Shown piece by piece: positions 13,892-36,254 of a stretch of 41,569 bases of DNA. Each line of letters opens with the position of its first letter. Position 1 is the first letter of the stretch. The notes beneath the pieces were generated by a model, which was not told where the DNA came from, did not search any database, and saw nothing but the letters and a program-made list of their open reading frames with translations. This DNA is from an uncultured Mycoplasmatota bacterium (GTDB taxonomy: Bacteria; Bacillota_I; Bacilli_A; RF39; UBA660): positions 1 through 41,569 of the forward strand of contig CAMFBT010000001.1 of assembly GCA_945948625.1 (NCBI GenBank), in the 5' to 3' direction. Made by a program: the position numbers and the translations under genes.

Positions 13892-14389
13892 ATGAAAAAA
13901 ATAGTAGTAAATGTTTTAATCATCTTGTATTTTCTAGTAGCAGTAGTAGTTACTTATGCATTATTATCTTATAATAAATACAACATAGTAGAAACAAAAG
14001 ATAAATATATCTTAACAATAAAAGAAGATAATCCAGATTTTAAAAAAAGTGATTTATTAGTAGTAAAAAAATCACAAGATTTAAAGGAAAAAGATTATGT
14101 ATTTTATTATGATACATATGCAACTAAAGTAACAGTAAAATATGCTAAAATAAAACAAATTAAAACAATCAATGAGGAAGAACAAGAGATTAACCTAGAA
14201 AATGATTTAGTATTATCAAGTGAGAATATTTTAGGAAGTAAAAAAAATACAATATCATATGCCATTATAGGCACAGTATTTAATGTATTAACATCAAAAT
14301 GGGGATACCTATTTATCATAATATTTCCAATGCTAATTGCTTTTATATATGAATTATATGCCATAGCAAAAGAAGTAAAGAGAAAATAA
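13892..14389 (+). CDS. Catalytically dead SipW-like signal peptidase paralogue (module A)
   Basis: Collinear with the SipW ORFs: an N-terminal TM helix, a PDFKKSDLLVVKK box, an ILG box and a C-terminal TM helix (WGYLFIIIFPMLIAFIYELYAI). The Ser box reads TIKEDNPD and the His box reads VKYAKIK. Confidence 0.65.
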   Translation: MKKIVVNVLIILYFLVAVVVTYALLSYNKYNIVETKDKYILTIKEDNPDFKKSDLLVVKKSQDLKEKDYVFYYDTYATKVTVKYAKIKQIKTINEEEQEINLENDLVLSSENILGSKKNTISYAIIGTVFNVLTSKWGYLFIIIFPMLIAFIYELYAIAKEVKRK

Positions 14390-14397
14390 TAAAACCT

Positions 14398-15390
14398 ATG
14401 AAAAAAAATATTACAAGGATAAAAAATTATCTATCAGAGTTAGAATTAAAAAAAGGATTATTAAAAATAAAGGCAAAACTTGATAAATATGGTAAAAAAG
14501 CTTATATCCTATTGGGAACATTATTAATATTGGTACTTACAACAATAACATATGGAAAATATATCTATAATGATATTAGAGATTTCTATTTAGCCAGTAA
14601 GAGTTTCTATTTTAATAGTGATAAACTAACAGTAAATAGAGCTATCTATCAAGTAGATAATTGGTCAGCAGTAGATCCATATACCATAACAATAAATCTA
14701 AACAATAGTAAAAATAATTTAATCCATGCAAGTAGTGATATAACTTATGAAATAAGTTATGTTTGTTCTAATAATGTTTTATGCAGTATAAATAGTGAAG
14801 GAGGAACACTTTATACTGAAGAAGGATCAAGCTATTTTAATGCTGTAATAACTCCAAATTCAACATTCGAAGTAGGAGATGAAGCTTTTATAGAAATAAC
14901 AGTAAAAAGTACATATCCTTATAAAAAAACACTAAGTGGAAGATTTATTTTAAAAGTAGGAAAAAGCGGATTAACATATACTATAGATGATAAAATAGGA
15001 AGACCATATTTGAATTTTAATATAACAAATACAATTGATTACTATCTAGTAAAAGAAGCATTTGATAGTTATCAAGTTGGGGATAGAATAGATAGATTAA
15101 CATATATAGAATTACCAGAAGAAAATAAAAGAAAATGTCTTTCTGCAGAAGTGACATTAACATTTGATCCAAATAAAGTTATATTAGATACTACAAATAC
15201 TATATTTTTAAAGAAAGAAAGTTATACAACAACAACTATTAATAATTATGATTATATAAATAGTATAACTTTTAGAATGGATTCAGAATCAAGTGAAGTA
15301 GTAAAGTTTTATAAAAGTGATACAAACATAGACTATACATATCCAATAACAAATGACATTTCAATAATTAATTTCAGTTATTCAGAATAG
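14398..15390 (+). CDS. Secreted TasA-like family protein, class-2 signal motif (TTITYGKYIY), long form
   Basis: Basic n-region, a hydrophobic helix, then TYGKY. SFYFNSDKLTVNRAIYQVDNWSAVDPYTITINLNN aligns with AFYILNADYYEKNIHLDNIVPSETPYVYTFKVSN of ORF 34462. The RBS is weak. Confidence 0.55.
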   Translation: MKKNITRIKNYLSELELKKGLLKIKAKLDKYGKKAYILLGTLLILVLTTITYGKYIYNDIRDFYLASKSFYFNSDKLTVNRAIYQVDNWSAVDPYTITINLNNSKNNLIHASSDITYEISYVCSNNVLCSINSEGGTLYTEEGSSYFNAVITPNSTFEVGDEAFIEITVKSTYPYKKTLSGRFILKVGKSGLTYTIDDKIGRPYLNFNITNTIDYYLVKEAFDSYQVGDRIDRLTYIELPEENKRKCLSAEVTLTFDPNKVILDTTNTIFLKKESYTTTTINNYDYINSITFRMDSESSEVVKFYKSDTNIDYTYPITNDISIINFSYSE

Positions 15391-15401
15391 GTGGTGATAT
15401 A

Positions 15402-16376
15402 ATGGCTAGTAATATAGTAAAAGAATATATTGATTTTTCAAAGAAAAATATAACAAAATACCTAAAAATAATTTTAGAACAAGATTATTCTAAAGAGATA
15501 ATAGAACCATTATTAGATACATATATAAATGTAAGATATTACAATAATTATGATATAAAATATAAAGTCTTTGAATCAAATATAAACTATTATATGAAGC
15601 AAAAAGCCATCAAAATAAATGAAGAAAAAGAAGAAGAATATATTTCTAAAGTAAAAAAAATCTTTTATTTATTTAAATATATATTGTATTTTGATAATGT
15701 TTTAGAATATGAATCACTAAAAAAAATAATATCAGAAATAGATGAATATCGAAATGAAGTACTAGGTTTAACTAGTGAAAATTTTATAGAAGAATTAAAT
15801 GACTTAGTAAAAGAAAATGAAAAAAGAAAAGAAACATTTATTGAAGAATTAAGTAGTGACCACTTTAATCTAGAAATAAAAAATACTAATAATAAAAATG
15901 TATTTAAAGTTAAATTAAATAATAATATAAAATTTAATAAAATATATAGTGATTACTCAATAAATAAAGTTTATAATGAAGGATTAGTAGATGAGCAAAA
16001 ACATTTTATATTATATTATTTAATAACTAGAGAAATATTAAAAAACATAATAAGAGGTGATTTCACTAAAGAGTATATAATTAGTTTTCCAAATAATATT
16101 TTTACAAAACAACAAAAAATAAATAGATTAATAGCCATAATAGATGATGAATCAATAAAAAATAATATTGTCATAGAATTTACCTATACAGATTATCTTT
16201 CTAATAAAGAAATAATAAATAGTTGGATAAAAAAAGGATTTCAAATAGCAATAAAAATAGATGAAAAATATAAATATGATAATAATAGTAAAATATGGCT
16301 AGATATATTTAAATATGTAATAGTAGATAAAGAAAAAAAGAATTTTTTTGATGAAGATCAATTAATAATTGAATAG
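15402..16376 (+). CDS. Cytoplasmic protein of unknown function
   Basis: RBS AGGTGGTGA. There is no TM helix or signal peptide. The composition is Lys/Glu/Asn/Ile-rich, and no secure motif was found. Confidence 0.6.
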   Translation: MASNIVKEYIDFSKKNITKYLKIILEQDYSKEIIEPLLDTYINVRYYNNYDIKYKVFESNINYYMKQKAIKINEEKEEEYISKVKKIFYLFKYILYFDNVLEYESLKKIISEIDEYRNEVLGLTSENFIEELNDLVKENEKRKETFIEELSSDHFNLEIKNTNNKNVFKVKLNNNIKFNKIYSDYSINKVYNEGLVDEQKHFILYYLITREILKNIIRGDFTKEYIISFPNNIFTKQQKINRLIAIIDDESIKNNIVIEFTYTDYLSNKEIINSWIKKGFQIAIKIDEKYKYDNNSKIWLDIFKYVIVDKEKKNFFDEDQLIIE

Positions 16377-16391: not shown

Positions 16392-17915
16392 ATGGATACA
16401 TTTTTTAGATTTTTATATGAATTTCTTGAACAATTTTTTACCTCATTTATACTAATGTTTAAAGGAATAATAAATGGAGTAATAAATATGTTCAATATAA
16501 AAAAATATATAGCAATTATTAATTTCTATAAAGAAGACTTTACCATTCCAGAATGGGTATTAGTAGTACTTGCTATATTAATAGTTTTAACCATAATAGG
16601 AGGCATAGGATTTATAATATATTATCTAATCAGAAAATATTTAAGATTTAGAAAAACAATTGTAGAAGAAGAATCACTTCTTGAAGAAGTTGCCTCTTTA
16701 AATAATCAAGTATCAGATTTAATGGAAGAAAAAGAAAGTATATTAGCAATGAAAGTATCACAACTAGGATTGAAACCAGGTGAATCCCCTGAAGTAGAAG
16801 AAAATGATAAATCGGGTGAAGATGCAGATACTACCAAGAGTAGATTCCCTAAATTAACAGCAGTAGATATTGAATATTCAAAATATAAAGTAGTAAATTA
16901 TGCAAATAATTTTACTCTAGAGGAATTAGTAGAAACATTTCGTAATTTTGCAGCATCAAAACTAAAATTATATTATAAATCAGAAATGATAAGATTATTC
17001 ATTTCAGCACTAGCTTCAACTAAATTAGTAATATTACAAGGTATATCTGGTACCGGTAAAACCTCCTTAGCATATGCTTGGGGAAAATTCTTAAAGCACG
17101 ACTCATGTGTTGCTTCTGTTCAACCATCATGGAGGGATAGGACAGAATTATTTGGATACTTTAATGAATTCACTAAAAAGTTTAATGAGACAGAAGTGTT
17201 AAAAGAACTTTATGTAGCAGGTTATACAGATGACATATATACAGTAATTCTAGATGAAATGAATATTTCAAGAGTAGAGTATTATTTTGCTGAAATGTTA
17301 TCAATACTAGAAATGCCAAACAAAGATGAGTGGATAGTAGAATTAGTATCTAGTTCTTGGCCTGATGATCCTAAAAATATTGAAGATGGAAAATTAAAAA
17401 TACCTCCTAATGTATGGTATATCGGAACAATTAATAACGACGATTCAACATTTATGGTAACAGATAAAGTATATGATAGAGCAATGCCTTTAGACATAAA
17501 TGATAAAGGGCAAGTATTTGAACCAATAGATACAGATGCACAAGATATAAATTATACATATTTAGATAAATTATTTAGTGAAGCAATGAATAATAATCCA
17601 ATATCAGAAGATACACTAAATAAAATAAATGAGATGGATGATTATGTAATAAAGCATTTTAGAATAGCTTTTGGTAATCGTATTGTAGCACATATGAAGA
17701 AATTCGTTCCAGTTTATGTAGCTTGTGGAGGAAACGAAGTAGATGGTGTAGATTATTTTATAGCAAGAAAAATATTAAGAAAATTTGAGCAATTAAATAT
17801 ATCCTATATTAGAGATGAAATAGATGGTTATATTGAATTTCTAGATAAAACATTTGGAAAAGGAAAAATGAAAGAATGTGAAGAATATTTACTTAGATTA
17901 AAGAAATTAACATAG
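16392..17915 (+). CDS. Membrane-anchored McrB-like AAA+ GTPase
   Basis: Two N-terminal hydrophobic helices and a coiled coil. Walker A is LQGISGTGKTS, and the Walker B/McrB signature is ILDEMNISRVEYYFAEMLSILE. The NxxD box is NVWYIGTINNDDSTFMVTDKVYDRAMPLDI. Confidence 0.8.
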   Translation: MDTFFRFLYEFLEQFFTSFILMFKGIINGVINMFNIKKYIAIINFYKEDFTIPEWVLVVLAILIVLTIIGGIGFIIYYLIRKYLRFRKTIVEEESLLEEVASLNNQVSDLMEEKESILAMKVSQLGLKPGESPEVEENDKSGEDADTTKSRFPKLTAVDIEYSKYKVVNYANNFTLEELVETFRNFAASKLKLYYKSEMIRLFISALASTKLVILQGISGTGKTSLAYAWGKFLKHDSCVASVQPSWRDRTELFGYFNEFTKKFNETEVLKELYVAGYTDDIYTVILDEMNISRVEYYFAEMLSILEMPNKDEWIVELVSSSWPDDPKNIEDGKLKIPPNVWYIGTINNDDSTFMVTDKVYDRAMPLDINDKGQVFEPIDTDAQDINYTYLDKLFSEAMNNNPISEDTLNKINEMDDYVIKHFRIAFGNRIVAHMKKFVPVYVACGGNEVDGVDYFIARKILRKFEQLNISYIRDEIDGYIEFLDKTFGKGKMKECEEYLLRLKKLT

Positions 17916-17925
17916 GAGGTAAAAA

Positions 17926-19041
17926 ATGAATGAACTTGAAATAGTAAACTTATATGAAAAAACAAATCAAGATAGAAATAGCAGATTTTCAGAAAATATA
18001 AATTCAAGTCTTCGAGTAAAAACAGCCTATGATCGAGTAAATACAAGTTTTGAATGGCTTGAGATAATGGAAGAAACTATAAGATATTTAGATAATATAT
18101 TAAGAAACCCCAATAGATTTATAATAAATGAGGAAGATATTGTTAAAATAGAATTAGCCCGTCGAGTAACCGTAGAAAGCATAAAACATTTATCAAAAAA
18201 TACTAATTTAATTCAAGATTATAATAAAGAAACAGGAGATGTAAGACCAAGTAAAATATTAAATATAAATAAAGAAGAAAGTTTTGATACATATGAAAAT
18301 AGATTTATTTATAGTTTAATAAAAAATATGAAGTTTTTTATAGAAAGAAAAAAGAAAAATCTAATTACTGAGTCATATAGCAAAGATGATAAAACAATGG
18401 AATATACTGCTAAAAGTAGTATAGACAATGAAAATATAGATATATCAATGACTATAAATTCTAAGAAAGATGATAAAAAGAATATTAAAGATGAATCAGG
18501 TTTAACAATTCCCGAAAGAATAGAGAGGTTAGAAACCCAAATATCCGACTTAACATCATCTTCAGTATATCAAATAATTGATAAAAAACATATATCATTA
18601 GTAACATCTCCAATAAAAAAAACCAATGTAATATTAAAGAATGTAAACTTTCAATATGCTGTAAAACTATGGAATTATATGCAAAATCATATGGAAGATG
18701 ATACAAAAAAAGAAAAGAAAAATAATGATTATTATGATGATGGCAATATAAAAAAGTTAATAGATGAATCATTTCTATTAGACTATTTAGTTTTAGATAC
18801 AATAAATAGAGAAGAAGAAAAATATGATAAAAAAGCCTTATCAGAAAAAATTGTTGGTAACATGATAGAAAAAATGATAACAATTGACTCGACTATTGAT
18901 GAAAAAAAATTAAAAGAAATAATAGATAAACAATATAGTATAATAAAATATAAAACAGTAGTAAATGAAAAACAAATAGAAGAAGTCTATAAAAAATATA
19001 TGGATAAATATTTAGAAAAAATAAAAATGTTAGAAATATAG
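17926..19041 (+). CDS. McrC-like partner protein; nuclease motif not evident
   Basis: RBS AGGAGG, 10 nt after the McrB-like stop. FDTYENRFIYSLIKNM resembles the McrC/DUF2357 EDT-x-ANR-[IF]-I box. The C-terminal half is Lys/Glu-rich with no clear hydrophobic-strand D-x-K. Confidence 0.4.
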   Translation: MNELEIVNLYEKTNQDRNSRFSENINSSLRVKTAYDRVNTSFEWLEIMEETIRYLDNILRNPNRFIINEEDIVKIELARRVTVESIKHLSKNTNLIQDYNKETGDVRPSKILNINKEESFDTYENRFIYSLIKNMKFFIERKKKNLITESYSKDDKTMEYTAKSSIDNENIDISMTINSKKDDKKNIKDESGLTIPERIERLETQISDLTSSSVYQIIDKKHISLVTSPIKKTNVILKNVNFQYAVKLWNYMQNHMEDDTKKEKKNNDYYDDGNIKKLIDESFLLDYLVLDTINREEEKYDKKALSEKIVGNMIEKMITIDSTIDEKKLKEIIDKQYSIIKYKTVVNEKQIEEVYKKYMDKYLEKIKMLEI

Positions 19042-19052
19042 TGGTGATATGT

Positions 19053-19616
19053 ATGATAGAAAGAATAAAAAATAATAAAGCATTAAAAATAATATTAATG
19101 ATTTTAAAAGCAATAGTATCTTTATTTATAGTAATAGTAATTAGTATAATCTTTATTCAGAGAATATCTAATAATAAATTATCATTAGGTGGATATAGTA
19201 TATATACAATTATAACAGAAAGTATGGCACCAAAATATAAAGTATATGATATGGTAATAGCAAAAGAAACAGATTCTAATCAAATAAAAGTAAATGATGA
19301 TGTTGTATATTTAGGAAATAAAGATGATTTTGCAGATAAAATAGTAACACATAGAGTAATAAAAAAAGAAGTACTAGAAGGTAAAAATTATTTTCATACT
19401 AAAGGTATAGCTAACGATATAGAAGATCCCTTAGTTGGAGAAGAACAAATATTAGGAAAAGTAGTATATAAAAGTAGAGTATTAAGTATAATCAGTAAAA
19501 TAGTAAATAATCCTTATGGCTTTTATTTTGTAGTATTTGTTCCTTTTGCCATATTACTAGTAATGGAATTAATAGATATAATAGAAGAGAGAAAAGAAAA
19601 AAATCTAAGTAGGTGA
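19053..19616 (+). CDS. sipW: Signal peptidase I, SipW/archaeal-ER type (S26B), module A
   Basis: Start moved to the ATG at 19053, which follows GGTGA by 5 nt. The Ser box is IITESMAPKY and the His box is IVTHRVIK. It has both N-terminal and C-terminal TM helices. Confidence 0.8.
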   Translation: MIERIKNNKALKIILMILKAIVSLFIVIVISIIFIQRISNNKLSLGGYSIYTIITESMAPKYKVYDMVIAKETDSNQIKVNDDVVYLGNKDDFADKIVTHRVIKKEVLEGKNYFHTKGIANDIEDPLVGEEQILGKVVYKSRVLSIISKIVNNPYGFYFVVFVPFAILLVMELIDIIEERKEKNLSR

Positions 19617-20218
19617 TACTATTGAATGACCAAAAAAAGAAAAGAAAAAAAAGAAGGATTAGATTAAGAACAATATTTTTTCTTGCTATAACACTAGCCT
19701 CAAATAGTTTTGCTTGGTTTATATATTCGACAAAAGTATCAAATAATATTACTGCTAAAGTAAAAAGTTGGCATGTAAACTTTGAAATAGGAAATGGTGA
19801 AGAAATAGAAGAATACTTAGAAATAAATATAGATTCATTATATCCAGGAATGGAAACCTATCAAAAAACATTGAAAGCATCAAATAATGGTGAATCAGAT
19901 GCTTACATAAATTATGAAGTAGAAAAAGCAATTGTATTAGGAGAAAATCTTCTGACTTTAAATTTAACAGATAATCAAATAATAGATAAAATAAGAAATG
20001 ATTATCCATTTACTATTGACTTTAATGTTTCAAATAATATTATATCAAAAGCTGGTGGAGAAACTGAAATTACAATAAGTGTGAGTTGGCCATATGAAAA
20101 TGGTAATGATACAGAAGATACATACTGGGGAAACAAGTCATATGATTATCATCAAGAACATAGTGATCTGCCAAGTATTAGTTTAATAATTAAGATAACC
20201 GCAGTCCAAGTAGAATAG
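19613..20218 (+). CDS. Secreted TasA/camelysin-like protein, class-1 signal motif (SNSFAWFIYS), short form
   Basis: The KKKRKKRRIRLR n-region is followed by a hydrophobic helix and FAWF. IDSLYPGMETYQKTLKASNNGESDAYINYEV resembles the TasA/camelysin PG-x-x-x...N-x-G strand pair. The start is uncertain: GTG at 19613 or TTG at 19622. Confidence 0.6.
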   Translation: MILLNDQKKKRKKRRIRLRTIFFLAITLASNSFAWFIYSTKVSNNITAKVKSWHVNFEIGNGEEIEEYLEINIDSLYPGMETYQKTLKASNNGESDAYINYEVEKAIVLGENLLTLNLTDNQIIDKIRNDYPFTIDFNVSNNIISKAGGETEITISVSWPYENGNDTEDTYWGNKSYDYHQEHSDLPSISLIIKITAVQVE

Positions 20219-20237
20219 AAGAATATTCTTCTTTTTT
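20217..20237 (+). terminator. Rho-independent terminator
   Basis: AGAAGA-atat-TCTTCT hairpin overlapping the TAG stop, followed by T5. Confidence 0.5.
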
Positions 20238-20288
20238 AATACCCTCGTGCCTATAGTCACTCTGGGTTTTAAATGCCTAAAGTCATTT

Positions 20289-20317
20289 AAAAAAGTTTTG
20301 AGCTAAAATCTCAAAAC
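20289..20317 (-). terminator. Rho-independent terminator for the minus-strand gene
   Basis: GTTTTGAG/CTCAAAAC stem (20295-20302 and 20310-20317) with a 7-nt loop. The A6 on the + strand gives T6 downstream on the - strand. Confidence 0.5.
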
Positions 20318-20325
20318 TATAATAA

Positions 20326-29000: not shown

Positions 29001-31076
29001 TACTTTACAAAAGGTAGTTATGTACTTGGAATGCATAAAACAAATCATGACATAACTGAAGATGGGTTCTATACCAATTATGGAAATGAAGAAGGAAATG
29101 GCATAATAATAAACTATATTGAACCAACTCCAGATAATTCAGATTTCTATATGTGGTCAGTAGGAGAAAAAGTAGATTCATATGAATTAACACTTACAGC
29201 ATCAAAATATTCAACACTTGGTACATATGAATTATCACTATTAAATCATGCAACTGCTAACACAAAATTCTCTATATTAGGTTTTAACTATTCAGCATTA
29301 GATCAAAATATAGTATTAACAGATTATAGAAATATACCTAGAATAGCAGCAACCGAAGAAGATGCAAATACCATTTTTGGATTAAATATGAAATCAGGAC
29401 AAAATGGTTGGATAACAAAAGGAAGTACTAATTTTATAACTGGAGAAAATACAAATGTACAAGGAACAATAGATTATCAAAGAGAAAACTTAGAAGGGGC
29501 TCCTAGTTTAGTATTTTACTTCTACCATTCTAAAAATTTAACTGAAACCCAAAATCTTGGTAGTGTAACAATTTCATTAGTGGCTATAACACCAATAGAT
29601 GATTTAAATAATGAAGTAAAAAGAATAAATATAAATGTAAACTTAAATACAGCATTATATAATACCAATGATTATGAAGGAACTATAACACCAGGAAAAA
29701 AATATGAAATGTTTGCAACTAGTCCTGTAGATATAACAACAAAGAGTAGTTTCAGTGCTTACTATTCATTATATATGGAAAGCGAAACAACACCATATAA
29801 AACTGGATACCATCGTAGTTTAGTATCAACATATTTATTACCAGTAAATACAGAATTAACGATGATTGATTTCCATGTTGAAGATAAACCTGTATACTAT
29901 TATTATACAGTAACAGAAGATGACTATACTTCTTTAGAAGAAGAATATAATCTATATGGAGAAGTATCATATCCATTATCTAAATTTATAAAAATGGGTA
30001 GTACAAGTCCTAATAATAATTATGATGATGCAACCGCTAATACAATATATTATAAAGATGAAAAAGCAATTGAAGAATTTATCTTTATGGTTGACTTTAA
30101 AGATACTAATATTGAGACAGACATCCTAGATAAATCACTATTAATTGAATTAAGAAATAATGATAATCAAACACTAATAAGTGTATTAGGAATAGAACAG
30201 TCCACTATGAAATACAATCTATATAATAATAGAGAAGGAATAATCGAATTATCAGGAAACTTATCTCAAAATACTATTTATCGAGGTAAGAGTACTAACT
30301 TAACATTAGATACAAACTTTATTCAAGATAAAATATCTACAAATACAATCTTTGATACTAACTTTGATGAGCAAAAATTAGGTATAAAGATAACAATTCT
30401 AGATAGTAGAGGAACTCCTCTTACAAGTTCAAGTTTAATGGGAATAAATTATACCTTCAATGGTAATACATATTATCCAAGATATGATGGTACGGTAAGA
30501 ATAAATATTACTGAAAAAGTTGCAAATGCAAGATCAAAGATAATAATTAATACTGAAAATAGTAATCTTTCAAGTGGTGAATATACCCTTCTAATAGAAT
30601 CATTTGGTTCAGCAGATGGAATATATTATGGATTAAATTCATCAGATCAGTTAGAAATAACATTTAATATAGTTGATAATATTTATGGTTTAAAAGTAAC
30701 CACGGATGATAAAATGCTATTTATAAATAAAGATACCGGTTTCACATTAAATGGTAATAATAGTTATGTATATAAGGTAGAATATACATCTGGATTATCT
30801 AATCCAAATACTAGATTAAAATTATTAAGAAGAGATTATACTTCAATATATACAAATGTTTATAACGAAGTAGATTTAAAAGATTATGTAACAAATACAT
30901 TAGAAATAACTTCTAATGACAAAGAATACTATCTGTCTAAAACACCAGTAAATGAAACAACATATTTCTTATACTTTAAAGAAAATTTACCAAATGGGAC
31001 CTATAAATTAGTAGTATCACTATATGATGATAATAACTATATAGGAGAAACATACCAATACATAATAATAAAATAG
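23025..31076 (+). CDS. Giant (about 2,680 aa) secreted beta-solenoid protein with a SipW-type-like N-terminal signal; putative fibre-borne adhesin
   Basis: One uninterrupted ORF. I prefer the GTG at 23025, 5 nt after AGGTGG, over the track start at 23016. The N-terminus is a KLKRKIKALK n-region, then LLVGTSSLLLLIIGI, then TTYFTTYSD. It contains dozens of [VI][YF]GG[GSN]N repeats and has no C-terminal LPXTG or TM anchor. Confidence 0.85.
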   Translation: MQKLKRKIKALKNNTKFKVRLLVGTSSLLLLIIGITTYFTTYSDLILEFSEDPDYIESSIKNNKVIVNDLENDYNYYQGQNYLDNDGTLPTTDNKNIYNDSTLVQAKITYYSDDDNNHKGYVSSSERQDTYIYFKTFYVNNNGTDDTTDDYVLIELIDNPFTDRPTDKAFNGWFTDYNGATLSFNKDYYERYAKVPVTYTDNKPNKIEITFRASWVGAKITTITSSNSWNSTIESLNTPEMHKLETIINIYEDVDMTGYYHQVSVRFFDSCTGYYNNRGQRQNNCTCYSFGGCTYYDLINGENFNENATYYELQNNNMQLVDNSTINRPLIETIEDTSYENGIMSSFYRKILVPRGSSIIGYYDSTGNIMTSGSCTTDGGCTYYELINYYKSNSTPEIYDENEEYYYLTTRDTNIIVMGSNIEGTWSTTEDIPFTVTALNNGTQNNVTWNANSAINCYSDVRIENITLYYDSVITEIYDPPSNTMASGVLYGRYNNVKLGRGLTQNGSYPTLRAVIGGSNSSIGSNNSPAKYKLVIESGIYNSISLTNGATRYGGSTIYVKNKGVYGNDYDRVIKDNDSLDVYYCASGSWSGTVYASTNSATSSDIALDLVVKNGSFGSSKYDLSTGIYVGGRYAGTHNAARRAKIEGGYIYNLIGGPLTSSRRSSVNDTYINMTGGEVDIIIGGAGTTATYGNRIISVTGGTVNYSVFGGSNGAKGNEGDGTLNGTPYIYIGGTATIGNDTNISNNNKLFGAESGSVFGIGNGKENSSTIGSADNSIIIIDGNSNIKRNIYGGGNYGATGVSSSLSSTYSTIIINDGFIDGDVYGGGNNNGSGSESKTSTVSITMNGGNVVGSIYGGSNELGTIYGSTNVNIFGGEVSNNVYGGGRGGYISDSAIGTFVVSDVNIVIGDSNSTYTPIIDGSVYGGSAFGSVNGSENTNTVSSSKTNVTINKGIINNVFGGGQGNNTYTPYVLGNIEVTVNNGTITNVYGGNDLKGKPNGNITVTINNGTIENTYGGGNETSANETNVYLNGGTSTKLFGGSNKNGDVVISNVTATGGTCETLYGGNNAGGTTGTTNVLINGGTINTVYGGGDKTSVTTSTNVVVNNKVDTIFGGSNLSGNIPLSNIEVNNAIINAVYGGNNQGGKVETTNVNINGNFIDSVYGGGLKAETTTTNLNLNYGLIKNVYGGGNEAGANETNVNLGGADIINLFGGSNKSGDVQNTYIKNIEDFVVSDLSAEFTISQSNINQIGATDISGSETITVEINNNTGVTLSEWDLYILTSESIFDSNWSSSEVEFDSINNIYHIDETNQWYGTNSLNNGTPFTFEFNIHSYDTYENFKIYSYMLIGYDTNGNQYTSKLTVDKMYGGNNLGGITNNAQIDLTAGSINVLFGGGNKASVTNSSTNIDNVVINEEIYGGGNEADVSSVILNINNSEVGNITKKGVVYGGGNAAKVTNSLELNINSSEINGNIYGGGNKGKVETKAKTTITTSHITDNIYGGGNEAEVQTTEVNIKQNTNIDKNIYGGGNLGTVLGEANTVIENSNITNSVFGGGNAAEVQGNANVTIHNSIIDEAIYGGGNGEYSIVPGDEIGDQNPAKVLGNTNLLVDENTKVKTIYGGGNLGKVNKDTKIEIKNITVTDSIYGGGNAAIVGENTNLYVSNVNVTNSIYAGGNGLLAVVYGNTNLDIDNNTVVGKHVFGGGNAAATGTEENNNSKGIVNIVGATINGNVYGGANTSQLYGDTTVNIGNLTSSNQNLIKSDIVIEGTVFGGGEANASGSEEYDYSFISVTVGIKININGSGHDTFTIKGSIFGSGNASSTTGYSYIDIKNYGTKEDIKRNISIQRANIVTLDNSYIELKGATDRTNEYSTVLFSLSRIDELKLINNTSLYLQNGGNLVKKLSSLTIENNIETKAQVTIDTETNTFTRNTNNRIYMLEGKNLNIATNENITSFGEVSGMTFFGMYLNSINGDIVTALYNDYDPSASVSSGDIYYFTKGSYVLGMHKTNHDITEDGFYTNYGNEEGNGIIINYIEPTPDNSDFYMWSVGEKVDSYELTLTASKYSTLGTYELSLLNHATANTKFSILGFNYSALDQNIVLTDYRNIPRIAATEEDANTIFGLNMKSGQNGWITKGSTNFITGENTNVQGTIDYQRENLEGAPSLVFYFYHSKNLTETQNLGSVTISLVAITPIDDLNNEVKRININVNLNTALYNTNDYEGTITPGKKYEMFATSPVDITTKSSFSAYYSLYMESETTPYKTGYHRSLVSTYLLPVNTELTMIDFHVEDKPVYYYYTVTEDDYTSLEEEYNLYGEVSYPLSKFIKMGSTSPNNNYDDATANTIYYKDEKAIEEFIFMVDFKDTNIETDILDKSLLIELRNNDNQTLISVLGIEQSTMKYNLYNNREGIIELSGNLSQNTIYRGKSTNLTLDTNFIQDKISTNTIFDTNFDEQKLGIKITILDSRGTPLTSSSLMGINYTFNGNTYYPRYDGTVRINITEKVANARSKIIINTENSNLSSGEYTLLIESFGSADGIYYGLNSSDQLEITFNIVDNIYGLKVTTDDKMLFINKDTGFTLNGNNSYVYKVEYTSGLSNPNTRLKLLRRDYTSIYTNVYNEVDLKDYVTNTLEITSNDKEYYLSKTPVNETTYFLYFKENLPNGTYKLVVSLYDDNNYIGETYQYIIIK
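24960..26697 (+). repeat. Coding repeat array 1 of the giant gene (about 24-26-aa GG-containing solenoid units); approximate bounds
   Basis: Successive units such as YGGGNETSANETNVYLNGGTSTKL, FGGSNKNGDVVISNVTATGGTCETL, YGGNNAGGTTGTTNVLINGGTINTV and YGGGDKTSVTTSTNVVVNNKVDTI. Confidence 0.7.
27120..28500 (+). repeat. Coding repeat array 2 of the giant gene (26-aa IYGGGN-x-A-x-V units); approximate bounds
   Basis: Five consecutive units of exactly 78 nt start at 27360, 27438, 27516, 27594 and 27672. There are at least six exact copies of TATGGTGGAGGAAA plus one-mismatch variants. Confidence 0.8.
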
Positions 31077-31084
31077 GAGGATTT

Positions 31085-31204
31085 ATGTCGAGAAAAGATA
31101 TCGAAGAATTAAGCGATGCAGATATAGTAGAATTATATAAAGAAATAAAAGATTTCATAGTTTTTCTTGAAAAAGAAATAATAGGTGATAATAATGCTAA
31201 ATGA
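31085..31204 (+). CDS. 39-aa acidic peptide, possible small ORF
   Basis: Not in the ORF track. A strong RBS (AGGAGGA) lies 4 nt before the ATG. The product is MSRKDIEELSDADIVELYKEIKDFIVFLEKEIIGDNNAK. It overlaps the next gene by 11 nt. Confidence 0.4.
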   Translation: MSRKDIEELSDADIVELYKEIKDFIVFLEKEIIGDNNAK

Positions 31205-32681
31205 ATATAAAAATAAAATTGAAGTTCAAAAAGAAGTATTATTATCACTTCCAAGAAATAATAATAAAAATGAAAAAGTATATCAAGCCAAAATAGGAGA
31301 GTTATTAGAAGAACTACAAAAAGAAAAAGAAGTAGTAGCAAGTGAAATCAGAAAAAGAAGAGATAGATATTTATCTTTAGAACATGACAAAAGTATAGAT
31401 TTACTTACAAAAGAAATAGACTTGCTACTACCATCTATCCATCTATTAAATAATTATAATTCTTCATATGAAAAAAGTAGTTTAGATATAATATTATATG
31501 AATTAGGACATTTCTATAAAACTGACTTAGAAAAAGTAAATAAAGATATAATAAAAGTATTAACAATCTTTTCTACAGTAGGAGTTACTTTAACGGAAGA
31601 AGACTTTAATTATAGTTATTATAGTGATAAATATATGAGAAAGATTCTATTACAAAGTACAAGTGAAGAAGAATTAAAAAACCATTTTGAAGAAATATAT
31701 TGGAAATGTCCTAATATAATAACACATATAACATTAAATCTAAAATATTTATACTATAAAAATAAAAAGAAATTTGATTTATATTATGAAAATAAAGTAA
31801 AAGAATTAGAAGATAGAAATATTATTGAAGCATATAAAGAATTATATATTGAAAGAGAACAAAAAGTAAAAAATGATGCTTATCTATTACAAGGTAGTTT
31901 TTTAGAAGGAAAACTAAATATAGGTGACTATACATTAGATAAAATAAATAAAGCATATAAATCAGTAATAGAGGACCTTCCATCAGAAAAAATAAATAGC
32001 GATATATTAAAGTTATATCATTCATTAATAGAATATAAAAATTACTTAGAATTTAATTATATAATAAATGATATAAAAGAACTATATAAAGAAAGAGATA
32101 AATATAAAAATATTTATAACAATAAGAAAAAAGAAATAGATAAGCTAGAAAGAGCACTTTCAAAGACTAATAAAAAAGTTTTAAAATTAATCTCCAAAGG
32201 AAAACAAGATAAAATAGATGTATTAAATAGTAAAATAAATATTAATATAAATAATTTAAAAAACCTATATGAAGAATTAGAAAAAAATTATTTTCTAGAA
32301 AAAATATCATTACTTGAAGATAGTACAACAATATATGATATTTTGTTATTAGCAATTTCTAATTATAATTACTTAATAGAATTACTAAAGAAAAATGAAA
32401 AAGACTTAGAAGAAATAAATAAATTAAATAATTTTATCAATAATCCTCATAACAGTATTTTAAATAACATTTTAATAGAAGAAGAAAAAGATTTAAGTAT
32501 GTTAATAATGGATAGATATAATTTATTTGGCTTTAATTTAACAAAAGAAAAACTAGAAAAAGATAATATTGAAAATTTAATAAAAGACTTAGAAATAATA
32601 TTAAATAGTATGGCAATGAATAGAGAAGGAATAACTGAAAATAGAATAAAGTTTATTAAAGAAACACAATATTTAGAATAA
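31194..32681 (+). CDS. Cytoplasmic helical, coiled-coil-rich protein of unknown function
   Basis: Start moved to the ATG at 31194, 5 nt after AGGTGA. It has no TM helix or signal peptide and shows Lys/Glu/Asn/Leu heptad-like stretches. Confidence 0.55.
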   Translation: MLNEYKNKIEVQKEVLLSLPRNNNKNEKVYQAKIGELLEELQKEKEVVASEIRKRRDRYLSLEHDKSIDLLTKEIDLLLPSIHLLNNYNSSYEKSSLDIILYELGHFYKTDLEKVNKDIIKVLTIFSTVGVTLTEEDFNYSYYSDKYMRKILLQSTSEEELKNHFEEIYWKCPNIITHITLNLKYLYYKNKKKFDLYYENKVKELEDRNIIEAYKELYIEREQKVKNDAYLLQGSFLEGKLNIGDYTLDKINKAYKSVIEDLPSEKINSDILKLYHSLIEYKNYLEFNYIINDIKELYKERDKYKNIYNNKKKEIDKLERALSKTNKKVLKLISKGKQDKIDVLNSKINININNLKNLYEELEKNYFLEKISLLEDSTTIYDILLLAISNYNYLIELLKKNEKDLEEINKLNNFINNPHNSILNNILIEEEKDLSMLIMDRYNLFGFNLTKEKLEKDNIENLIKDLEIILNSMAMNREGITENRIKFIKETQYLE

Positions 32682-32749: not shown

Positions 32750-33283
32750 ATGAAAAAAGTTTTAAAAATAATAGGAATAATACTAATAGTCATATATGCA
32801 GTAGTGGCTATAACACTTACAATATTTCTACTAAATTACAATAAATATAATATAACAGAAATAAATGATAAGTCATTAATAATTGTAAGAGATGAAGAAT
32901 TAAAACCAGATTTTCAAAAGGGAGATTTAGTAATAGTAAAGAAAAATCAAAATAAAGATATAAAAGTAGGAGATAAAATATTCTTTTATGACAATTATAA
33001 AGATATAGTTTCTGTTAATTTAGGAACAGTATTAGAAAAAGAATCAATAACAAAAGAGGAAACTACATATATTATGGATGGAGATTATGCTGTATCTAGT
33101 GAATATGTAATAGGAACTGCTAAAACAAGTAAATCTTATAGCAATTTAGGAACAATATTAGGAGTACTAGAATCAAGATTCGGTTTCCTATTTATGATAA
33201 TATTTCCTATACTTGTATTATTTATATATGAGATATATGCAGTAATAAGAGAATTAAAGAGTTCAAAAGAAGATGAAGAATAA
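32750..33283 (+). CDS. Catalytically dead SipW-like signal peptidase paralogue (module B)
   Basis: Paralogue of ORF 13892. IVRDEELKPDFQKGDLVIVKK aligns with IVSGSMEPTLNIKDLIVVKN of the active enzyme, so the nucleophile Ser is lost. The His box reads VNLGTVL. The C-terminal TM helix RFGFLFMIIFPILVLFIYEIYAV is conserved. Confidence 0.65.
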   Translation: MKKVLKIIGIILIVIYAVVAITLTIFLLNYNKYNITEINDKSLIIVRDEELKPDFQKGDLVIVKKNQNKDIKVGDKIFFYDNYKDIVSVNLGTVLEKESITKEETTYIMDGDYAVSSEYVIGTAKTSKSYSNLGTILGVLESRFGFLFMIIFPILVLFIYEIYAVIRELKSSKEDEE

Positions 33284-33872
33284 GAGAATATTAATAATAC
33301 TATCCATAATTTTAGTTTTTATAACAATATATATTATAAGAGATACTTATGGATTGTTTGAAAGTAAAAATACAATGATTATGGATAGCGGTGTAGCAAA
33401 GTGGAATGTATTAATAAATGGAACAGATATAAAAAGTGGTGATAATTTTATTGTAGATACTGTAAATATTGATAGTTCAGATAATGTTTTAGGTGGAAAA
33501 ATAGCTCCTGGAACTAAAGGATATTTTGATATAGTTATAAATCCAACAGATACAGAAACATCAATATTATATAGTATAACTTTTGATTTTAGCCAAGTAG
33601 TAGGTAGTATTACTATTGATAAAATAGAAGAACTTACAAGTGGTAATTTAATAAGAACAGGAGAAAATACTTATTCAAAAATAATAACATTAGAAGAAAT
33701 AGAAAATAAAGTAATAAACACAATTCGTGTTTACATAAAATGGAATAATATTGAGGAAAATAATGAAGAAGACAGTAAAATTGGAACAATAAAGGATAAT
33801 TTTATTAGTATTCCAGTATCAGTTTCAGTTATTCAATATTTAGGTGAACCAGTGGAAGAATATCAAAATTAA
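33273..33872 (+). CDS. Secreted TasA-like family protein, class-2 signal motif (RDTYGLFES)
   Basis: MKNKR n-region, a hydrophobic helix, then TYGLF. It is a paralogue of the minus-strand ORF 20326-20910. Confidence 0.6.
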   Translation: MKNKRILIILSIILVFITIYIIRDTYGLFESKNTMIMDSGVAKWNVLINGTDIKSGDNFIVDTVNIDSSDNVLGGKIAPGTKGYFDIVINPTDTETSILYSITFDFSQVVGSITIDKIEELTSGNLIRTGENTYSKIITLEEIENKVINTIRVYIKWNNIEENNEEDSKIGTIKDNFISIPVSVSVIQYLGEPVEEYQN

Positions 33873-33891: not shown

Positions 33892-34452
33892 ATGGTAAAG
33901 TATATGAACAAAACATTTCAAGTTTTTCTTGATATCTTAGTATTTATAATCACCGTTTTAATTTTTTTTTCATTATATAATTTTATATCAATAAAACTAT
34001 TACATAAAGAATATCCCAATATATTAGGCTTTACAGCATTTGAAATAGTAAGTGGAAGTATGGAACCAACATTAAATATCAAAGATCTAATAGTAGTTAA
34101 AAATACCACAGATATAAAAAAAAATGATATCATAACCTATATAGATAATAAAGATTTTATAACACACAGAGTAATAAAAATTGAAGGCAACACATTAACA
34201 ACTAAAGGGGATTCAAATAACAGTAATGACGTCAGAATAGATAAAACAAAAATAATAGGGAAAGTAGTATTAATAATACCAAAAGGAGGATTAATAAGAG
34301 AAGTATTTACCACTCCTAAAGTAGTAATATCAATAGTAGTAACACTAATATTAATAAGTTTAAGTGTTTCTTATATACCCAAAAATAAAAGAAAACATAA
34401 AACAACACTAGATGATAAATTCGAGGATCCAAGTTGTATATTTAAGAAGTAG
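33892..34452 (+). CDS. sipW: Signal peptidase I, SipW/archaeal-ER type (S26B), module B
   Basis: The Ser box is EIVSGSMEPT (Ser codon at 34057-34059), followed by KDLIVVKN, the His box FITHRVIKI and TKGDSN. It has both N-terminal and C-terminal TM helices. Confidence 0.85.
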   Translation: MVKYMNKTFQVFLDILVFIITVLIFFSLYNFISIKLLHKEYPNILGFTAFEIVSGSMEPTLNIKDLIVVKNTTDIKKNDIITYIDNKDFITHRVIKIEGNTLTTKGDSNNSNDVRIDKTKIIGKVVLIIPKGGLIREVFTTPKVVISIVVTLILISLSVSYIPKNKRKHKTTLDDKFEDPSCIFKK

Positions 34453-34461
34453 GTGAGTAAT

Positions 34462-35049
34462 ATGTTTGATAGAAGAAAACTATTAAGATCAAATAAACTA
34501 ACAATAGCCATAATATTACTAGCAGTAATATTAACATTAATACCAATTGCATATTCAAAATTATTTTCTGAAAATGATTCAGATGCAAAAATAGAAACAG
34601 CATTCTATATCTTAAATGCCGACTATTACGAAAAAAACATTCATTTAGATAATATAGTGCCTTCAGAAACACCTTATGTATATACCTTCAAAGTATCAAA
34701 TAATGATGGAACAAATAGAGTAGAAACAAAATTAGAATACACTTTGAAAATAGTTACCACTACTAATTTACCATTATCATATAAATTATATATGAATGAA
34801 GATTATAATAATGAAAATAGTACTAATATAATAATAAATGATACAATTGCTAAAACTAGTGAAGATGGAGCTTACTTTAAAACTATGGAAACAAACAAAC
34901 AAACATTTGGCTTTACTACTGATGAAGAAAATATTTATCATTTAGTAATAACATTTCCTAAAGAATATGATAGTTTTGAATACCAAGATATAGTAGAAGG
35001 AATAACAATAAATATTGAATCAAAGCAAATAATAGAAGAAAATGCATAA
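34462..35049 (+). CDS. Secreted TasA-like family protein, class-2 signal motif (PIAYSKLFSE)
   Basis: Start moved to the ATG at 34462, 5 nt after AGGTGA. It has a basic n-region, a hydrophobic helix, then AYSKLF. The N-terminal domain is paralogous to ORF 14398. Confidence 0.55.
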   Translation: MFDRRKLLRSNKLTIAIILLAVILTLIPIAYSKLFSENDSDAKIETAFYILNADYYEKNIHLDNIVPSETPYVYTFKVSNNDGTNRVETKLEYTLKIVTTTNLPLSYKLYMNEDYNNENSTNIIINDTIAKTSEDGAYFKTMETNKQTFGFTTDEENIYHLVITFPKEYDSFEYQDIVEGITINIESKQIIEENA

Positions 35050-35085
35050 AATAAAAAACTTATGCAAAAAATGTCGAATTTTTAC

Positions 35086-35114
35086 TTGCAAATAAAAAAA
35101 AAGTGTGTTATACT
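35086..35114 (+). promoter_or_regulatory. Strong sigma-A type promoter of the module-B large subunit gene
   Basis: TTGCAA (35086-35091), a 17-nt spacer containing A9 (35094-35102), then tgtTATACT (35106-35114). It is followed by a roughly 60-nt leader and the RBS AAAGGAG. Confidence 0.65.
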
Positions 35115-35174
35115 AAAATAGTAATAGTAGGAGAGAAAGTAATTCTCAAATTCTTAATAAAAAGGAGTGTTAAA

Positions 35175-36254
35175 ATGGAAGAAAAAGTTCTTACTAAAGA
35201 AGAAAAAGAAAAACTAAAAAAAGAAAGAAACAAAAGAAGAAAATATAGATTGTTGATACTATTACTTTTAATGCTAGGAACTGGAACTATGCTTGCTACA
35301 TCAACCTACGCATGGTTTACATCAAATAAAAATGTTTCAGTAGAATCATTAAAAGTAAATATTGAAGCTAAAAATGGTATTCAAATATCTGCTGATGGAA
35401 CAAAATGGAAATCAATAGTTCAAAAAGCAGATTTAGTTGGAGCACGTAAAGGCAATTATGTTGCTGCTGTTAACCAGATACCAGAATCATTAGAACCAGT
35501 ATCAACAGCAGGAGTACCAGATACAAATGGATATTTACCAATGTATTATGGAGTAGTAGAAACATCAACTTCTAGTGCTAATAATGGTGAATACATTTTA
35601 ACTGCTACTAAGACTACTGAAATAGATAATAATATTAGAACTGGTGCTGAAGCAGATACGGCAAAGTTTATTGCATTTGATTTATTCTTTAAAGTTAATG
35701 CAGATACAAAAGTATACTTACAAGCTGGGTCTGGAGTATTAAATGATGATGCAGCAGATAATGGAATTAAGAATGCTTCAAGAATAGCTTTTGTAAATCT
35801 TGGAAATACAGCAGATGGTTCAGAATTGTCTTCAATTCAAGGATTAAATGCTGGAACAAGTTCTACAGTTACAATATGGGAACCAAACTATGATATTCAT
35901 ACAGCAGCAGGTGTAGCAAATGCTAACGACGTTTATGGTATTCCTACAACACAGGCAAATGGAGAATTAATACCATATTCTGGAATAATAGCTCCAGTAG
36001 CAGCAAGTGACGATATTTTATTAGGAGAGGCAACACAGACAAAAGATTCTACTAAATTTAAAACCGTAACACCAGGAAAGGCAACAACAGCAGCTTTTGA
36101 TACAAATGTTGAGCTATTTACATTAAGTAAAGGAATTACAAAAATAAGAATATATATGTGGGTTGAAGGACAAGATGTTGACTGTGAAAACAATGCTTCA
36201 GGTGGAAATATTTCATTTGACCTAAAGATTAGCACAACAGCTCCAGGTGCATAA
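35175..36254 (+). CDS. Secreted TasA-like large subunit, class-1 signal motif (TSTYAWFTS); probable major subunit
   Basis: Start moved to the ATG at 35175; the track's GTG at 35103 lies inside the promoter. It has its own promoter and terminator. The composition is Ala/Thr/Gly-rich, unlike its neighbours. The C-terminal box is IRIYMWVEGQDVDCENNASGGNI. Confidence 0.7.
   Translation: MEEKVLTKEEKEKLKKERNKRRKYRLLILLLLMLGTGTMLATSTYAWFTSNKNVSVESLKVNIEAKNGIQISADGTKWKSIVQKADLVGARKGNYVAAVNQIPESLEPVSTAGVPDTNGYLPMYYGVVETSTSSANNGEYILTATKTTEIDNNIRTGAEADTAKFIAFDLFFKVNADTKVYLQAGSGVLNDDAADNGIKNASRIAFVNLGNTADGSELSSIQGLNAGTSSTVTIWEPNYDIHTAAGVANANDVYGIPTTQANGELIPYSGIIAPVAASDDILLGEATQTKDSTKFKTVTPGKATTAAFDTNVELFTLSKGITKIRIYMWVEGQDVDCENNASGGNISFDLKISTTAPGA

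Follow-up and report, generated by a model that had tools for sequence, protein, structure and literature searches.

The closest described counterparts of the gene cluster reported here are operons that combine a SipW-type signal peptidase with fibre or matrix proteins (tapA-sipW-tasA of Bacillus subtilis, sipW-tasA-calY of Bacillus cereus and sipW-bsaA-bsaB-bsaC of Clostridium perfringens) and the pilus gene cluster of Streptococcus pyogenes. One study of TasA attributes its being a substrate of SipW, and not of LepB, to the aromatic residue at P2' (PMC10269814). In C. perfringens, the efficient release of polymers of BsaA, a SipW-processed, TasA-like protein, requires cytoplasmic type IV pilus ATPases (PMC11580942), which provides a precedent for a motor coupled to a SipW system. 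The S. pyogenes pilus cluster encodes SipA, a dead signal-peptidase paralogue that is essential for polymerisation and has been proposed to bind the subunit via its retained cleft (PMC4049620). AbpA of archaeal bundling pili and CanA of cannulae are beta-sandwich subunits polymerised by donor-strand complementation. Both are reported to be related to TasA (PMC9245690). The cluster that we compare with these systems comprises 18 genes and about 22 kb (positions 13892-36254) in a window of 41,569 nt, the whole stretch of DNA analysed, from an uncultured Mycoplasmatota bacterium (RF39; UBA660; assembly GCA_945948625.1, contig CAMFBT010000001.1, positions 1-41,569, forward strand), with a G+C content of about 25%.

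On balance, we lean towards the view that this cluster encodes a dedicated machine that exports, processes and assembles a cell-surface structure, most likely a heteropolymeric fibre with a giant adhesin. Signal peptidases of family S26B with the catalytic Ser and His are encoded beside their putative substrates, and nine of the proteins carry a processing signal of the form small-aromatic-small↓x-aromatic (the arrow marks the expected cut). Homologues of these peptidases that have lost the Ser/His dyad are encoded in the same putative surface-fibre cluster. The entire gene set is found with near-fixed adjacency in dozens of 78 species-level loci. These loci come from a scan in which each species was represented by a single genome and two peptide patterns of class 1 served as queries; the patterns matched 397 loci, 78 of which were retrieved and inspected; gene sharing was scored by phmmer, with the window proteins against all open reading frames (ORFs) of the 78 loci. 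Proteins were compared with Pfam (2025), NCBIfam (June 2026), PADLOC, PDB and BFVD. Genes are named below by their first coordinate (20326c lies on the minus strand) and related loci by L and a number; the larger exported subunits are termed class 1 and a family of smaller ones class 2. The genes of the cluster and the sites assigned to it are:

13847-13876, plus strand: promoter-like site before the first operon, TTTACA-18-TATACT with TG upstream, whose 13-base core AAGTGTGnTATACT is shared with the site 5' of 35175.
13892-14389, plus strand: pseudo-SipW1 (pSipW1), a paralogue of endoplasmic reticulum (ER)/archaeal-type signal peptidases without the catalytic Ser and His, with N- and C-terminal transmembrane helices; NF046067 E 2e-5.
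14398-15390, plus strand: exported protein, 330 aa, with ITYG[RK]YIYN after the helix; orthologues in 31-33 loci, with 15402 always next.
15402-16376, plus strand: cytoplasmic protein, 324 aa, no transmembrane helix and no recognisable family; always between 14398 and the AAA+ gene.
16392-17915, plus strand: membrane-anchored McrB-family AAA+ nucleoside triphosphatase (NTPase), with a transmembrane helix at about residues 48-81, RKYLRFRK, a coiled coil and the AAA+ domain.
17926-19041, plus strand: partner resembling the N-terminal part of McrC (DUF2357); PF09823 2.2e-13, residues 24-153.
19041-19616 (probable start 19053), plus strand: SipW1, predicted active ER/archaeal-type signal peptidase I; TIGR02228 58.7 bits.
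19613-20218, plus strand: small exported subunit, 201 aa, SNSFAWFIY; hhalign to 33273 90% over 151 columns.
20326-20910, minus strand: class-2 exported subunit, 194 aa, ETYAKYLT; hhalign to 33273 99.9%.
21240-21953, plus strand: exported protein with a transmembrane anchor, 237 aa, IIYxGGKFTITLD, and a class-1-like C-terminal W-EG-D-DC motif.
21946-22950, plus strand: paralogue of the class-1 large subunit, 334 aa, SSYAWFT; hhalign to 35175-36254 100%; always immediately 5' of the giant gene.
23016-31076, plus strand: giant exported protein, 2686 aa, with an N-terminal helix, a TYSD motif and 25 [YF]GG[GS]N repeats; orthologues in 48 loci.
31085-31204, plus strand: acidic helical ORF of 39 aa, MSRKDIEELSDADIVELYKEIKDFIVFLEKEIIGDNNAK, between the giant and coiled-coil genes; called as a gene in L079-L081.
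31194-32681, plus strand: cytoplasmic protein rich in coiled coil, 495 aa; always after the giant gene.
32750-33283, plus strand: pseudo-SipW2 (pSipW2), 177 aa; TIGR02228 31 bits, under cutoff; hhalign to SipW1 98%.
33273-33872, plus strand: class-2 exported subunit, 199 aa, STYGLFES.
33892-34452, plus strand: SipW2, predicted active ER/archaeal-type signal peptidase I; TIGR02228 78.2 bits.
34453-35049, plus strand: class-2-related exported subunit, 198 aa, AYSKLF in the window and ITYSKYES in the consensus; hhalign to 20326c 95%.
35086-35114, plus strand: promoter-like site serving the last gene, TTGCAA-17-TATACT with a TGTG extension.
35175-36254, plus strand: class-1 large subunit, 359 aa, TSTYAWFT; the gene has a promoter-like site to itself, AAGGAG as ribosome-binding site and a terminator; its start follows the gene calls of L080/L081.
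36278-36304, plus strand: terminator-like hairpin 3' of the class-1 gene, GGAAGTTAAATAACTTCC and then TTTT, read by eye from the sequence.

Every ORF listed in an earlier sequence-only reading of this DNA is present at its position, although that reading overlooked the eighteenth gene, the 39-aa ORF at 31085-31204. It had also described two modules in which a pseudo-SipW, a class-2 protein, a SipW, a small subunit and a large class-1 protein recur in that order. This order is approximate only, as the best hhalign pairs are 14398 with 34453 and 19613 with 33273.

Both SipW1 and SipW2 score above the curated cutoff (51.85 bits) of TIGR02228, the NCBIfam model of archaeal-type signal peptidase I, and the catalytic Ser and His are kept in 30/30 SipW1 orthologues and in 47-48 of the 49 orthologues of SipW2, in agreement with the two active signal peptidases claimed by the sequence-only reading. 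The closest proteins to SipW2 in PDB are human SEC11C and SEC11A (SEC11C E 1.5e-3), the alignment spanning SGSMEP, with the Ser, and HRV, with the His. A hydrophobic helix is found at the N-terminus and at the C-terminus of all four members of the peptidase family in the cluster. The homology of the two pSipWs was established through profile–profile alignments: hhalign gave 94-98% probability between pSipW and active SipW profiles (97% for pSipW1 with SipW1) and 100% between pSipW1 and pSipW2, and in PDB the pSipW profile matched SEC11A/C alone, without reaching significance (E 0.06). The catalytic His is absent from all of the approximately 75 pSipW orthologues scanned, 62 of which belong to pSipW2, and the Ser is missing in most. 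Two catalytically dead paralogues had been proposed, and both homology and the missing residues support them. Because the catalytic residues are gone across the orthologues of related genomes, the loss of catalysis predicted for the pSipWs is an ancient and maintained one, with no recent decay.

In one related genome (L031), a LepB/SipS-type signal peptidase I is encoded about 4 kb downstream of the cluster (14987-15523; E 3.9e-26), so the SipWs are not the sole signal peptidases of that organism. The match was made with the SipS sequence of B. subtilis.

Nine proteins of the cluster begin with a basic n-region and one hydrophobic helix that is directly followed by the motif [ST]-[YF]-[AGS]-x-[YFL]; a tenth, 21240, has the helix and a differing segment. 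In orthologue alignments, the motif is among the most conserved segments of each exported family, and the earlier count of at least eight proteins with a helix and an aromatic motif is thereby borne out. A pattern search in the first 80 residues retrieved eight cluster proteins, seven of which pass a strict post-helix filter, 19613-20218 falling under its hydrophobicity threshold; a ninth match is TYALL of pSipW1, within its own transmembrane helix. Outside the cluster, the motif was found in only one of 17 window genes. Mature TasA starts at the second Ala of TWA↓AFND, as checked against 8AUR, and the best local hhalign alignment of both subunit profiles puts TYAxF/TYAWF over GTWAAFND of the TasA family. 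The motif is thus in register with the TasA cleavage site, which agrees with the proposal that these N-termini are neither AXA nor lipobox signals.

The class-1 gene 35175-36254 encodes the putative major structural protein. Class 1 is a large family, with 2917 clusters at 50% identity (E<=1e-3) and 403 at E<=1e-30, and identical copies of the window class-2 protein occur in 282 blocks of the assembly collection. No Pfam domain or informative name was found among 240 listed class-1 and class-2 relatives. The C-terminus of class 1 aligned with 21240 (hhalign 86%) over the common motif W-EG-D-DC-N-GG, and 21240 may be a candidate uncleaved base or anchor subunit. Residues 327-344 of the 35175-36254 product form an invariant acidic loop with a single invariant cysteine (Y-MW-EGQDVDCENN-SGG), which is common to 21240 and weaker in class 2 (W-x-D/N-x-E-x-N-x-x-D-x-x-x-G); this loop may be a metal (Ca2+) site. 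The gene 20326c is the sole minus-strand gene of the cluster, both in the window and in nearly all loci examined.

In the giant protein, a putative adhesin, the [YF]GG[GS]N repeats are spaced mostly 24-26 residues apart, and its orthologues have TY[GSA][DE][FYL] in common. It matched nothing in Pfam, NCBIfam or PDB. The earlier description of this protein as a beta-solenoid is favoured by the 25 repeats, but it draws on these repeats and not on a structure.

Other routes of surface display left no trace in the cluster. No LPXTG/NPXTG-type sorting signal lies near the C-terminus of any real ORF, and Pfam and NCBIfam scans of the cluster proteins detected no sortase family, no SLH or CWB2 anchoring domain, no type IV filament family (PilB, PilC, PilD) and no G↓FTLxE motif. 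Sortases, LPXTG substrates, type IV pilus ATPases and prepilin peptidases had all been reported as missing, and the scans concur. The cluster motifs sit C-terminal to the hydrophobic helix, the opposite of the type IV class III signal.

The related genomes are all metagenome-assembled genomes (MAGs) from human, Hadza, ruminant and chicken guts. They are labelled Bacilli bacterium, Firmicutes CAG:321/CAG:884, Clostridium sp. CAG:628/914/609 and 'Tenericutes'; these taxon labels are unreliable, and a few bin labels are implausible. The order pSipW, class 2, SipW was found in 53 loci and continues with class 2 and class 1 in 46. The series 14398, 15402, AAA+, DUF2357, SipW1, 19613 was retrieved in 28-30 loci, the series 19613, 20326c (minus strand), 21240, class 1, giant in 10-15, and the adjacency of the giant and coiled-coil genes in 41. 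The order of the blocks is permuted among lineages, the blocks themselves remaining contiguous, and several related clusters adjoin ftsY-ylxM-ffh or murE, as in the window. That the full set stays together in dozens of species accords with the earlier claim of one coherent system. Extra genes inside the cluster of other species are lineage-specific insertions only.

Two such insertions fall in the same slot. In L025, a protein of 879 aa whose N-terminus, KKAFTLIELLAVIIILG, resembles that of a type IV pilin is encoded between the homologues of 19613 and 20326c (17782-20421), and in L052 and L057 a 640-aa multi-transmembrane protein occupies this position. The signal recognition particle (SRP) genes ftsY-ylxM(-ffh) lie beside the cluster in L016, L025, L028, L035, L041 and L054; in the window, ylxM has no adjacent ffh.

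The AAA+ protein had been noted as a membrane protein, and the PDB profile match and its Walker and NxxD motifs now place it in the McrB family. The closest PDB relative of its AAA+ domain is E. coli McrB (6hz4; E 2.4e-4, motifs aligned), and it matches the PADLOC defence candidate PDC-M26A (3e-34). Walker A (GISGTGKTS), Walker B (ILDEMN) and NxxD (NNDD) are invariant in its orthologues. No other protein of the cluster is as conserved: across 25 species, its median identity to the window copy is 75%, and that of its neighbours 32-52%. The gene of the DUF2357 partner follows the AAA+ gene in 28/30 loci, and its stop overlaps the start of SipW1. In 22 orthologues, the partner has no invariant D, E or K past residue 249 and, because no acidic or lysine residue is invariant there, it is predicted to be without a nuclease. 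The pair thus has the McrB-type AAA+ core, and lacks the PD-(D/E)xK nuclease and the DNA-binding N-domain of an McrBC system.

The three remaining cytoplasmic proteins (15402, the coiled-coil protein and the 39-aa protein) have no hydrophobic helix and no recognisable family. The 39-aa ORF overlaps the start of the coiled-coil gene and occupies the same position in at least 23 other loci, with the motif EELsDxELiElYKxixxFixyLE. A degenerate EAL/cyclic di-GMP domain was suspected by eye in 15402 and found no support in Pfam, NCBIfam or PDB searches.

Taken as a fibre-assembling machine, the cluster would work as follows. Sec/SRP would insert the pre-proteins, and SipW1 and SipW2 would cut after the small residue of the motif, as SipW cuts TasA at TWA↓AF, exposing the conserved N-termini WFTxN..., KY... 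and LF.... The pSipWs may retain the cleft for binding and hold on to subunits so that these polymerise in order, by analogy with SipA in streptococcal pili. The product of the monocistronic 35175-36254 would be the major subunit and the smaller paralogues minor or adaptor subunits; 21240 is a possible uncleaved membrane anchor, and the giant repeat protein would be a distal adhesin. The McrB-like and DUF2357 proteins, together with 15402, the 39-aa protein and the coiled-coil protein, would form a cytoplasmic NTP-driven module that, by analogy with known motors, may power or gate assembly or passage through the wall. A stronger form of this reading is possible but doubtful: a new surface nanomachine in which an McrB-family motor, an McrC-like activator and pairs of SEC11-type peptidases and pseudopeptidases assemble a filament of new fold with a giant beta-helical adhesin at its tip. 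Such a nanomachine would be a functional counterpart of type IV pili without common ancestry with a known pilus system, and it would be widespread in uncultured gut Bacilli with reduced genomes.

A number of results weigh against the assignment to a fibre machine. PF12389 matched no window protein (E<=0.01), none of 40 class-2 members (E<=5) and none of 54 diverse class-1 members (E<=1); as a control, it was present in all 120 TasA relatives retrieved. In hhalign comparisons with a 45-member TasA-family alignment, class 2 reached 1.3% and class 1 2.4% probability, and a single TasA sequence gave <1% for the profiles of both classes. The AlphaFold2 model of class 1 (predicted local distance difference test, pLDDT, 83; predicted template modelling score, pTM, 0.80) is a jelly-roll-like beta protein of 310 residues for which Foldseek found no match at E<=0.001 in PDB or BFVD, TasA lying outside the top 50. 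The -3/-1 residues are less canonical in 21240 and in the giant protein. The polymer, the cleavage at the motif and the localisation are all deduced from genes, the cleavage by way of TasA. Furthermore, we know of no SipW/TasA-type system with an McrB-like NTPase, and the motor role is a guess.

By these profile comparisons, the class-1 and class-2 subunits fall outside the TasA/camelysin family, their mature domains having no detectable homology, although they may still act in a TasA-like way. The label 'TasA-like' given to them earlier therefore stands for the signal motif, in register with the TasA cleavage site, but not for the mature domains, which match no TasA or PF12389 profile. Similarly, the profile searches proposed with that label recognised the peptidases, but no subunit matched PF12389 or the SipW-cognate models; none of the NCBIfam SipW-cognate or SipW-exported models had a hit at E<=0.1 among the cluster proteins. 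For 14398, no Pfam or NCBIfam match was found, and PDB profile searches with class 1 (narrow and broad), class 2, 15402, DUF2357 and the giant protein returned nothing significant. The Afp tailocin fibre came up repeatedly but weakly in these searches (E 0.075-0.36), and we regard it as noise.

The proposed structural check gave a divided answer: class 2 is a beta-sandwich with a weak resemblance to TasA and AbpA, whereas class 1 has no PDB match. The AlphaFold2 model of class 2 (33273-33872; pLDDT 75) retrieved weak Foldseek hits (E 1.7e-3 to 3e-2), in which carbohydrate-binding modules and Ig-like domains are mixed with fibre subunits, the latter being the TasA fibre 8AUR, BcpA, FimG, EbpB, RrgB, CanA and AbpA. 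In this list, 8aur_A ranks eighth (E 4.6e-3, prob 0.51, TM-score ~0.2) amid generic beta-sandwiches. The Foldseek hits of class 1 to picornavirus VP1 and other capsid jelly rolls (prob <0.1) are non-significant and were taken to indicate nothing beyond a jelly-roll-like topology. In the monomer models of both classes, confidence is low just after the motif and high in the core; as weak evidence from the models, such a segment would be compatible with a strand donated to a neighbour. A 'donor-strand fibre' is an analogy, because the fold of class 1 has no match in PDB or BFVD.

The same exported proteins might instead build a two-dimensional coat, a sheath or a biofilm matrix comparable to an S-layer or to the TasA matrix, with the giant protein displayed independently as an adhesin. 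We regard this as unlikely, though it has several points on its side. The putative major subunit is jelly-roll-like, its gene has a promoter-like site and a terminator to itself, which is typical for an abundant envelope protein, and the top Foldseek hits of the protein, non-significant as they are, are capsid jelly rolls; both TasA and BsaA serve as matrix material, and the cluster scans found no SLH, CWB2 or LPXTG anchoring. Nevertheless, several minor paralogues, candidate chaperones derived from dead peptidases and an NTPase module suit the ordered assembly of a filament better than a self-assembling lattice. The cluster could also be less than a machine: the SipWs may be general housekeeping signal peptidases of reduced genomes, and their neighbours an unassembled assortment of surface proteins. 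The lineages have small genomes, as inferred from MAG labels, and the cluster adjoins SRP genes ftsY-ylxM(-ffh) in the window and in at least six other loci. We consider this reading improbable, since in the window the motif is nearly confined to cluster proteins, the paralogous families of putative substrates always accompany the peptidases, a LepB/SipS-type peptidase is encoded as well in at least one genome with the cluster (L031), and two conserved dead paralogues are hard to account for.

The least probable of the readings, in our opinion, is that two systems are merely juxtaposed, an McrBC-like anti-phage or restriction module (16392-19041) having come to lie inside an unrelated SipW-dependent secretion cluster. 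The likeness of the AAA+ protein to PDC-M26A and to E. coli McrB would fit such a module, as would DUF2357 in its partner, a domain typical of McrC-like proteins. Defence genes, however, are usually patchy and fast-evolving, whereas this pair holds the same slot, from 15402 to SipW1, in 28-30 species and includes the most conserved protein of the cluster. The N-terminal membrane anchor of the AAA+ protein, the lack of conserved PD-(D/E)xK residues in its partner and the overlap of the 17926-19041 stop with SipW1 likewise argue against it. We retain, with the reservations above, the reading as a dedicated machine for a surface structure, with the putative motor as one of its parts.

The arrangement of the genes suggests six transcription units, the final gene (35175-36254) being predicted to be monocistronic. 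This division follows from the pattern of gaps and from promoter-like and terminator-like sites, which were assigned as consensus matches only. Intergenic spacing inside the sub-operons ranges from -11 to +19 bases, so that genes are tightly packed or overlapping, and larger gaps occur only ahead of 20326c, 21240, the giant gene, 31185/31194, 32750 and 35175. Further terminator-like hairpins are found at 22938-22963 (after 21946-22950) and at 20318-20294 (for the minus-strand gene 20326c). There are exactly two copies of AAGTGTGnTATACT, one (13863-13876) ahead of the first transcription unit of the cluster and one (35101-35114) ahead of the last. TGnTATACT boxes lie in front of four units of the cluster (the other two at 22987 and 32722) and of one unrelated gene at 40317. 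A cluster-specific promoter motif was dropped as an explanation, since the box ahead of that unrelated gene is identical; for the same reason, TGnTATACT is probably the general extended -10 promoter of the organism. A generic scan for promoters yielded no information in DNA this rich in AT (100 observed vs 91 expected), and an Rfam scan of the window detected no RNA family.

In the window, the cluster is preceded by conjugative-element genes (31-8303), rny, a GH3 gene, ftsY, ylxM and a Clp-D1-like AAA gene, and followed by murE. The left flank had been given as ftsY-ylxM; these core genes are indeed there (11191-12773), but the Clp-D1-like gene (12922-13815) intervenes between ylxM and the cluster. 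This gene encodes a stand-alone AAA+ protein of 297 aa that corresponds to the first nucleotide-binding domain of ClpA/ClpB/ClpV (TIGR02639 5.6e-50, far under cutoff); the IetA and TRIP13 models of PADLOC match it weakly. The gene was ruled out as a member of the cluster, as no orthologue lies beside the cluster in any of the 78 loci. Directly 5' of rny, positions 31-8303 hold a partial Gram-positive conjugative element, assigned by eye from translations, as were its genes for a VirB4-like ATPase (2191-3975), a cell-wall hydrolase with an M23 motif (4000-5202) and a VirD4/TcpA-like coupling protein (6180-8303). On the other side, downstream of a DUF1015 gene (37880-39136), a 118-aa ORF (39649-40005) opens like an AAA_14/DUF4143 ATPase. 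Its counterpart in L081 is a 413-aa gene with those domains, L079 and L080 differ, and the position looks like a variable or decayed spot.

Of the cluster proteins, the two active peptidases and the McrB-like/DUF2357 pair are all that Pfam, NCBIfam, PADLOC and PDB recognise. The sequence-only reading had judged the architecture to be undescribed, and we likewise found no account of it in full-text searches of the literature on SipW with McrB, TasA-like systems of Mollicutes-like Bacilli or RF39/RFN20 pili. The cluster takes up about 22 kb of seemingly small genomes; it is conserved in several hundred uncultured Bacilli from the guts of humans and animals, counted by species-level genome, and its proteins turn up on hundreds of contigs from metagenomes. 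If it encodes an adhesive appendage, this would probably be a main route of these abundant uncultivated Bacilli to host mucus, food particles or partner cells. Dead signal peptidases would then be known as assembly factors in a second case, now with the eukaryote/archaea-type fold, an McrBC-type motor would have its first role outside defence, and two large families would be added to the exported beta-proteins. Metaproteomics, antibody enrichment and cultivation of these lineages could be aimed at the giant adhesin and at the conserved WFTxN N-termini.

Compared with tapA-sipW-tasA and sipW-tasA-calY, the cluster shares the principle of a dedicated ER/archaeal-type signal peptidase encoded beside its substrates. 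As in tapA-sipW-tasA, the signal ends in small-aromatic-small↓x-aromatic (TWA↓AF in TasA; TYA↓WF, TYG↓KY and TYG↓LF in the cluster), the mature N-terminus is the most conserved segment, and there are major and accessory subunits, putative ones in the cluster. However, the cluster subunits are without PF12389 homology, and there are 18 genes instead of three, including two peptidases with two dead paralogues, an McrB-like NTPase module, a giant repeat protein and three cytoplasmic proteins. With sipW-bsaA-bsaB-bsaC of C. perfringens, the cluster has in common a SipW alongside several exported matrix or fibre proteins. The C. perfringens motor is borrowed and belongs to the PilB family, whereas the cluster encodes its own McrB-family AAA+; moreover, BsaA is remotely TasA-like and the cluster subunits are not, and no vWA protein was detected in the cluster. 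AbpA and CanA are both among the weak class-2 Foldseek hits, which are non-significant (E 1.5e-2 to 2.3e-2, TM-score 0.3-0.4), and to our knowledge neither a motor nor dead peptidases have been described for them.

The pSipWs resemble SipA/LepA of S. pyogenes in being signal-peptidase paralogues without catalytic residues inside a putative surface-fibre cluster. SipA, however, has the LepB-type (Ser/Lys) fold and works with sortases and LPXTG pilins, whereas the pSipWs are of the SEC11/SipW type (Ser/His), have two transmembrane helices and occur in a cluster without a sortase or an LPXTG signal. Sortase-assembled Gram-positive pili differ from the cluster in the same way, since it has neither a sortase gene nor LPXTG-type signals. 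The AAA+ protein has McrB-like Walker A, Walker B and NxxD motifs, and its partner carries the N-terminal DUF2357 of McrC; in McrBC, this domain of McrC plugs the hexamer and stimulates the GTPase. Unlike McrBC, the cluster AAA+ has a membrane anchor in place of the DNA-binding domain, its partner is without a PD-(D/E)xK nuclease, and the pair lies within a secretion cluster and is conserved together with it. Type IV pili and Com pseudopili follow the same overall logic as that proposed for the cluster: a major subunit and several minor ones are inserted in the membrane and bear conserved N-terminal processing motifs, a peptidase is dedicated to them, a hexameric NTPase acts in the cytoplasm and a large adhesin sits at the tip. 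Nevertheless, the cut in the cluster proteins would fall on the outer side of the helix and be made by a Ser/His peptidase, the helix being removed and not kept, and the cluster has no PilB, PilC or PilD homologue and no G↓FTLxE motif. What is known in this system is the logic of SipW-dependent export; what is new are the subunits, the paired pseudo-peptidases of the SEC11 type, a putative motor of the McrB type encoded within the cluster, and the scale of the whole.

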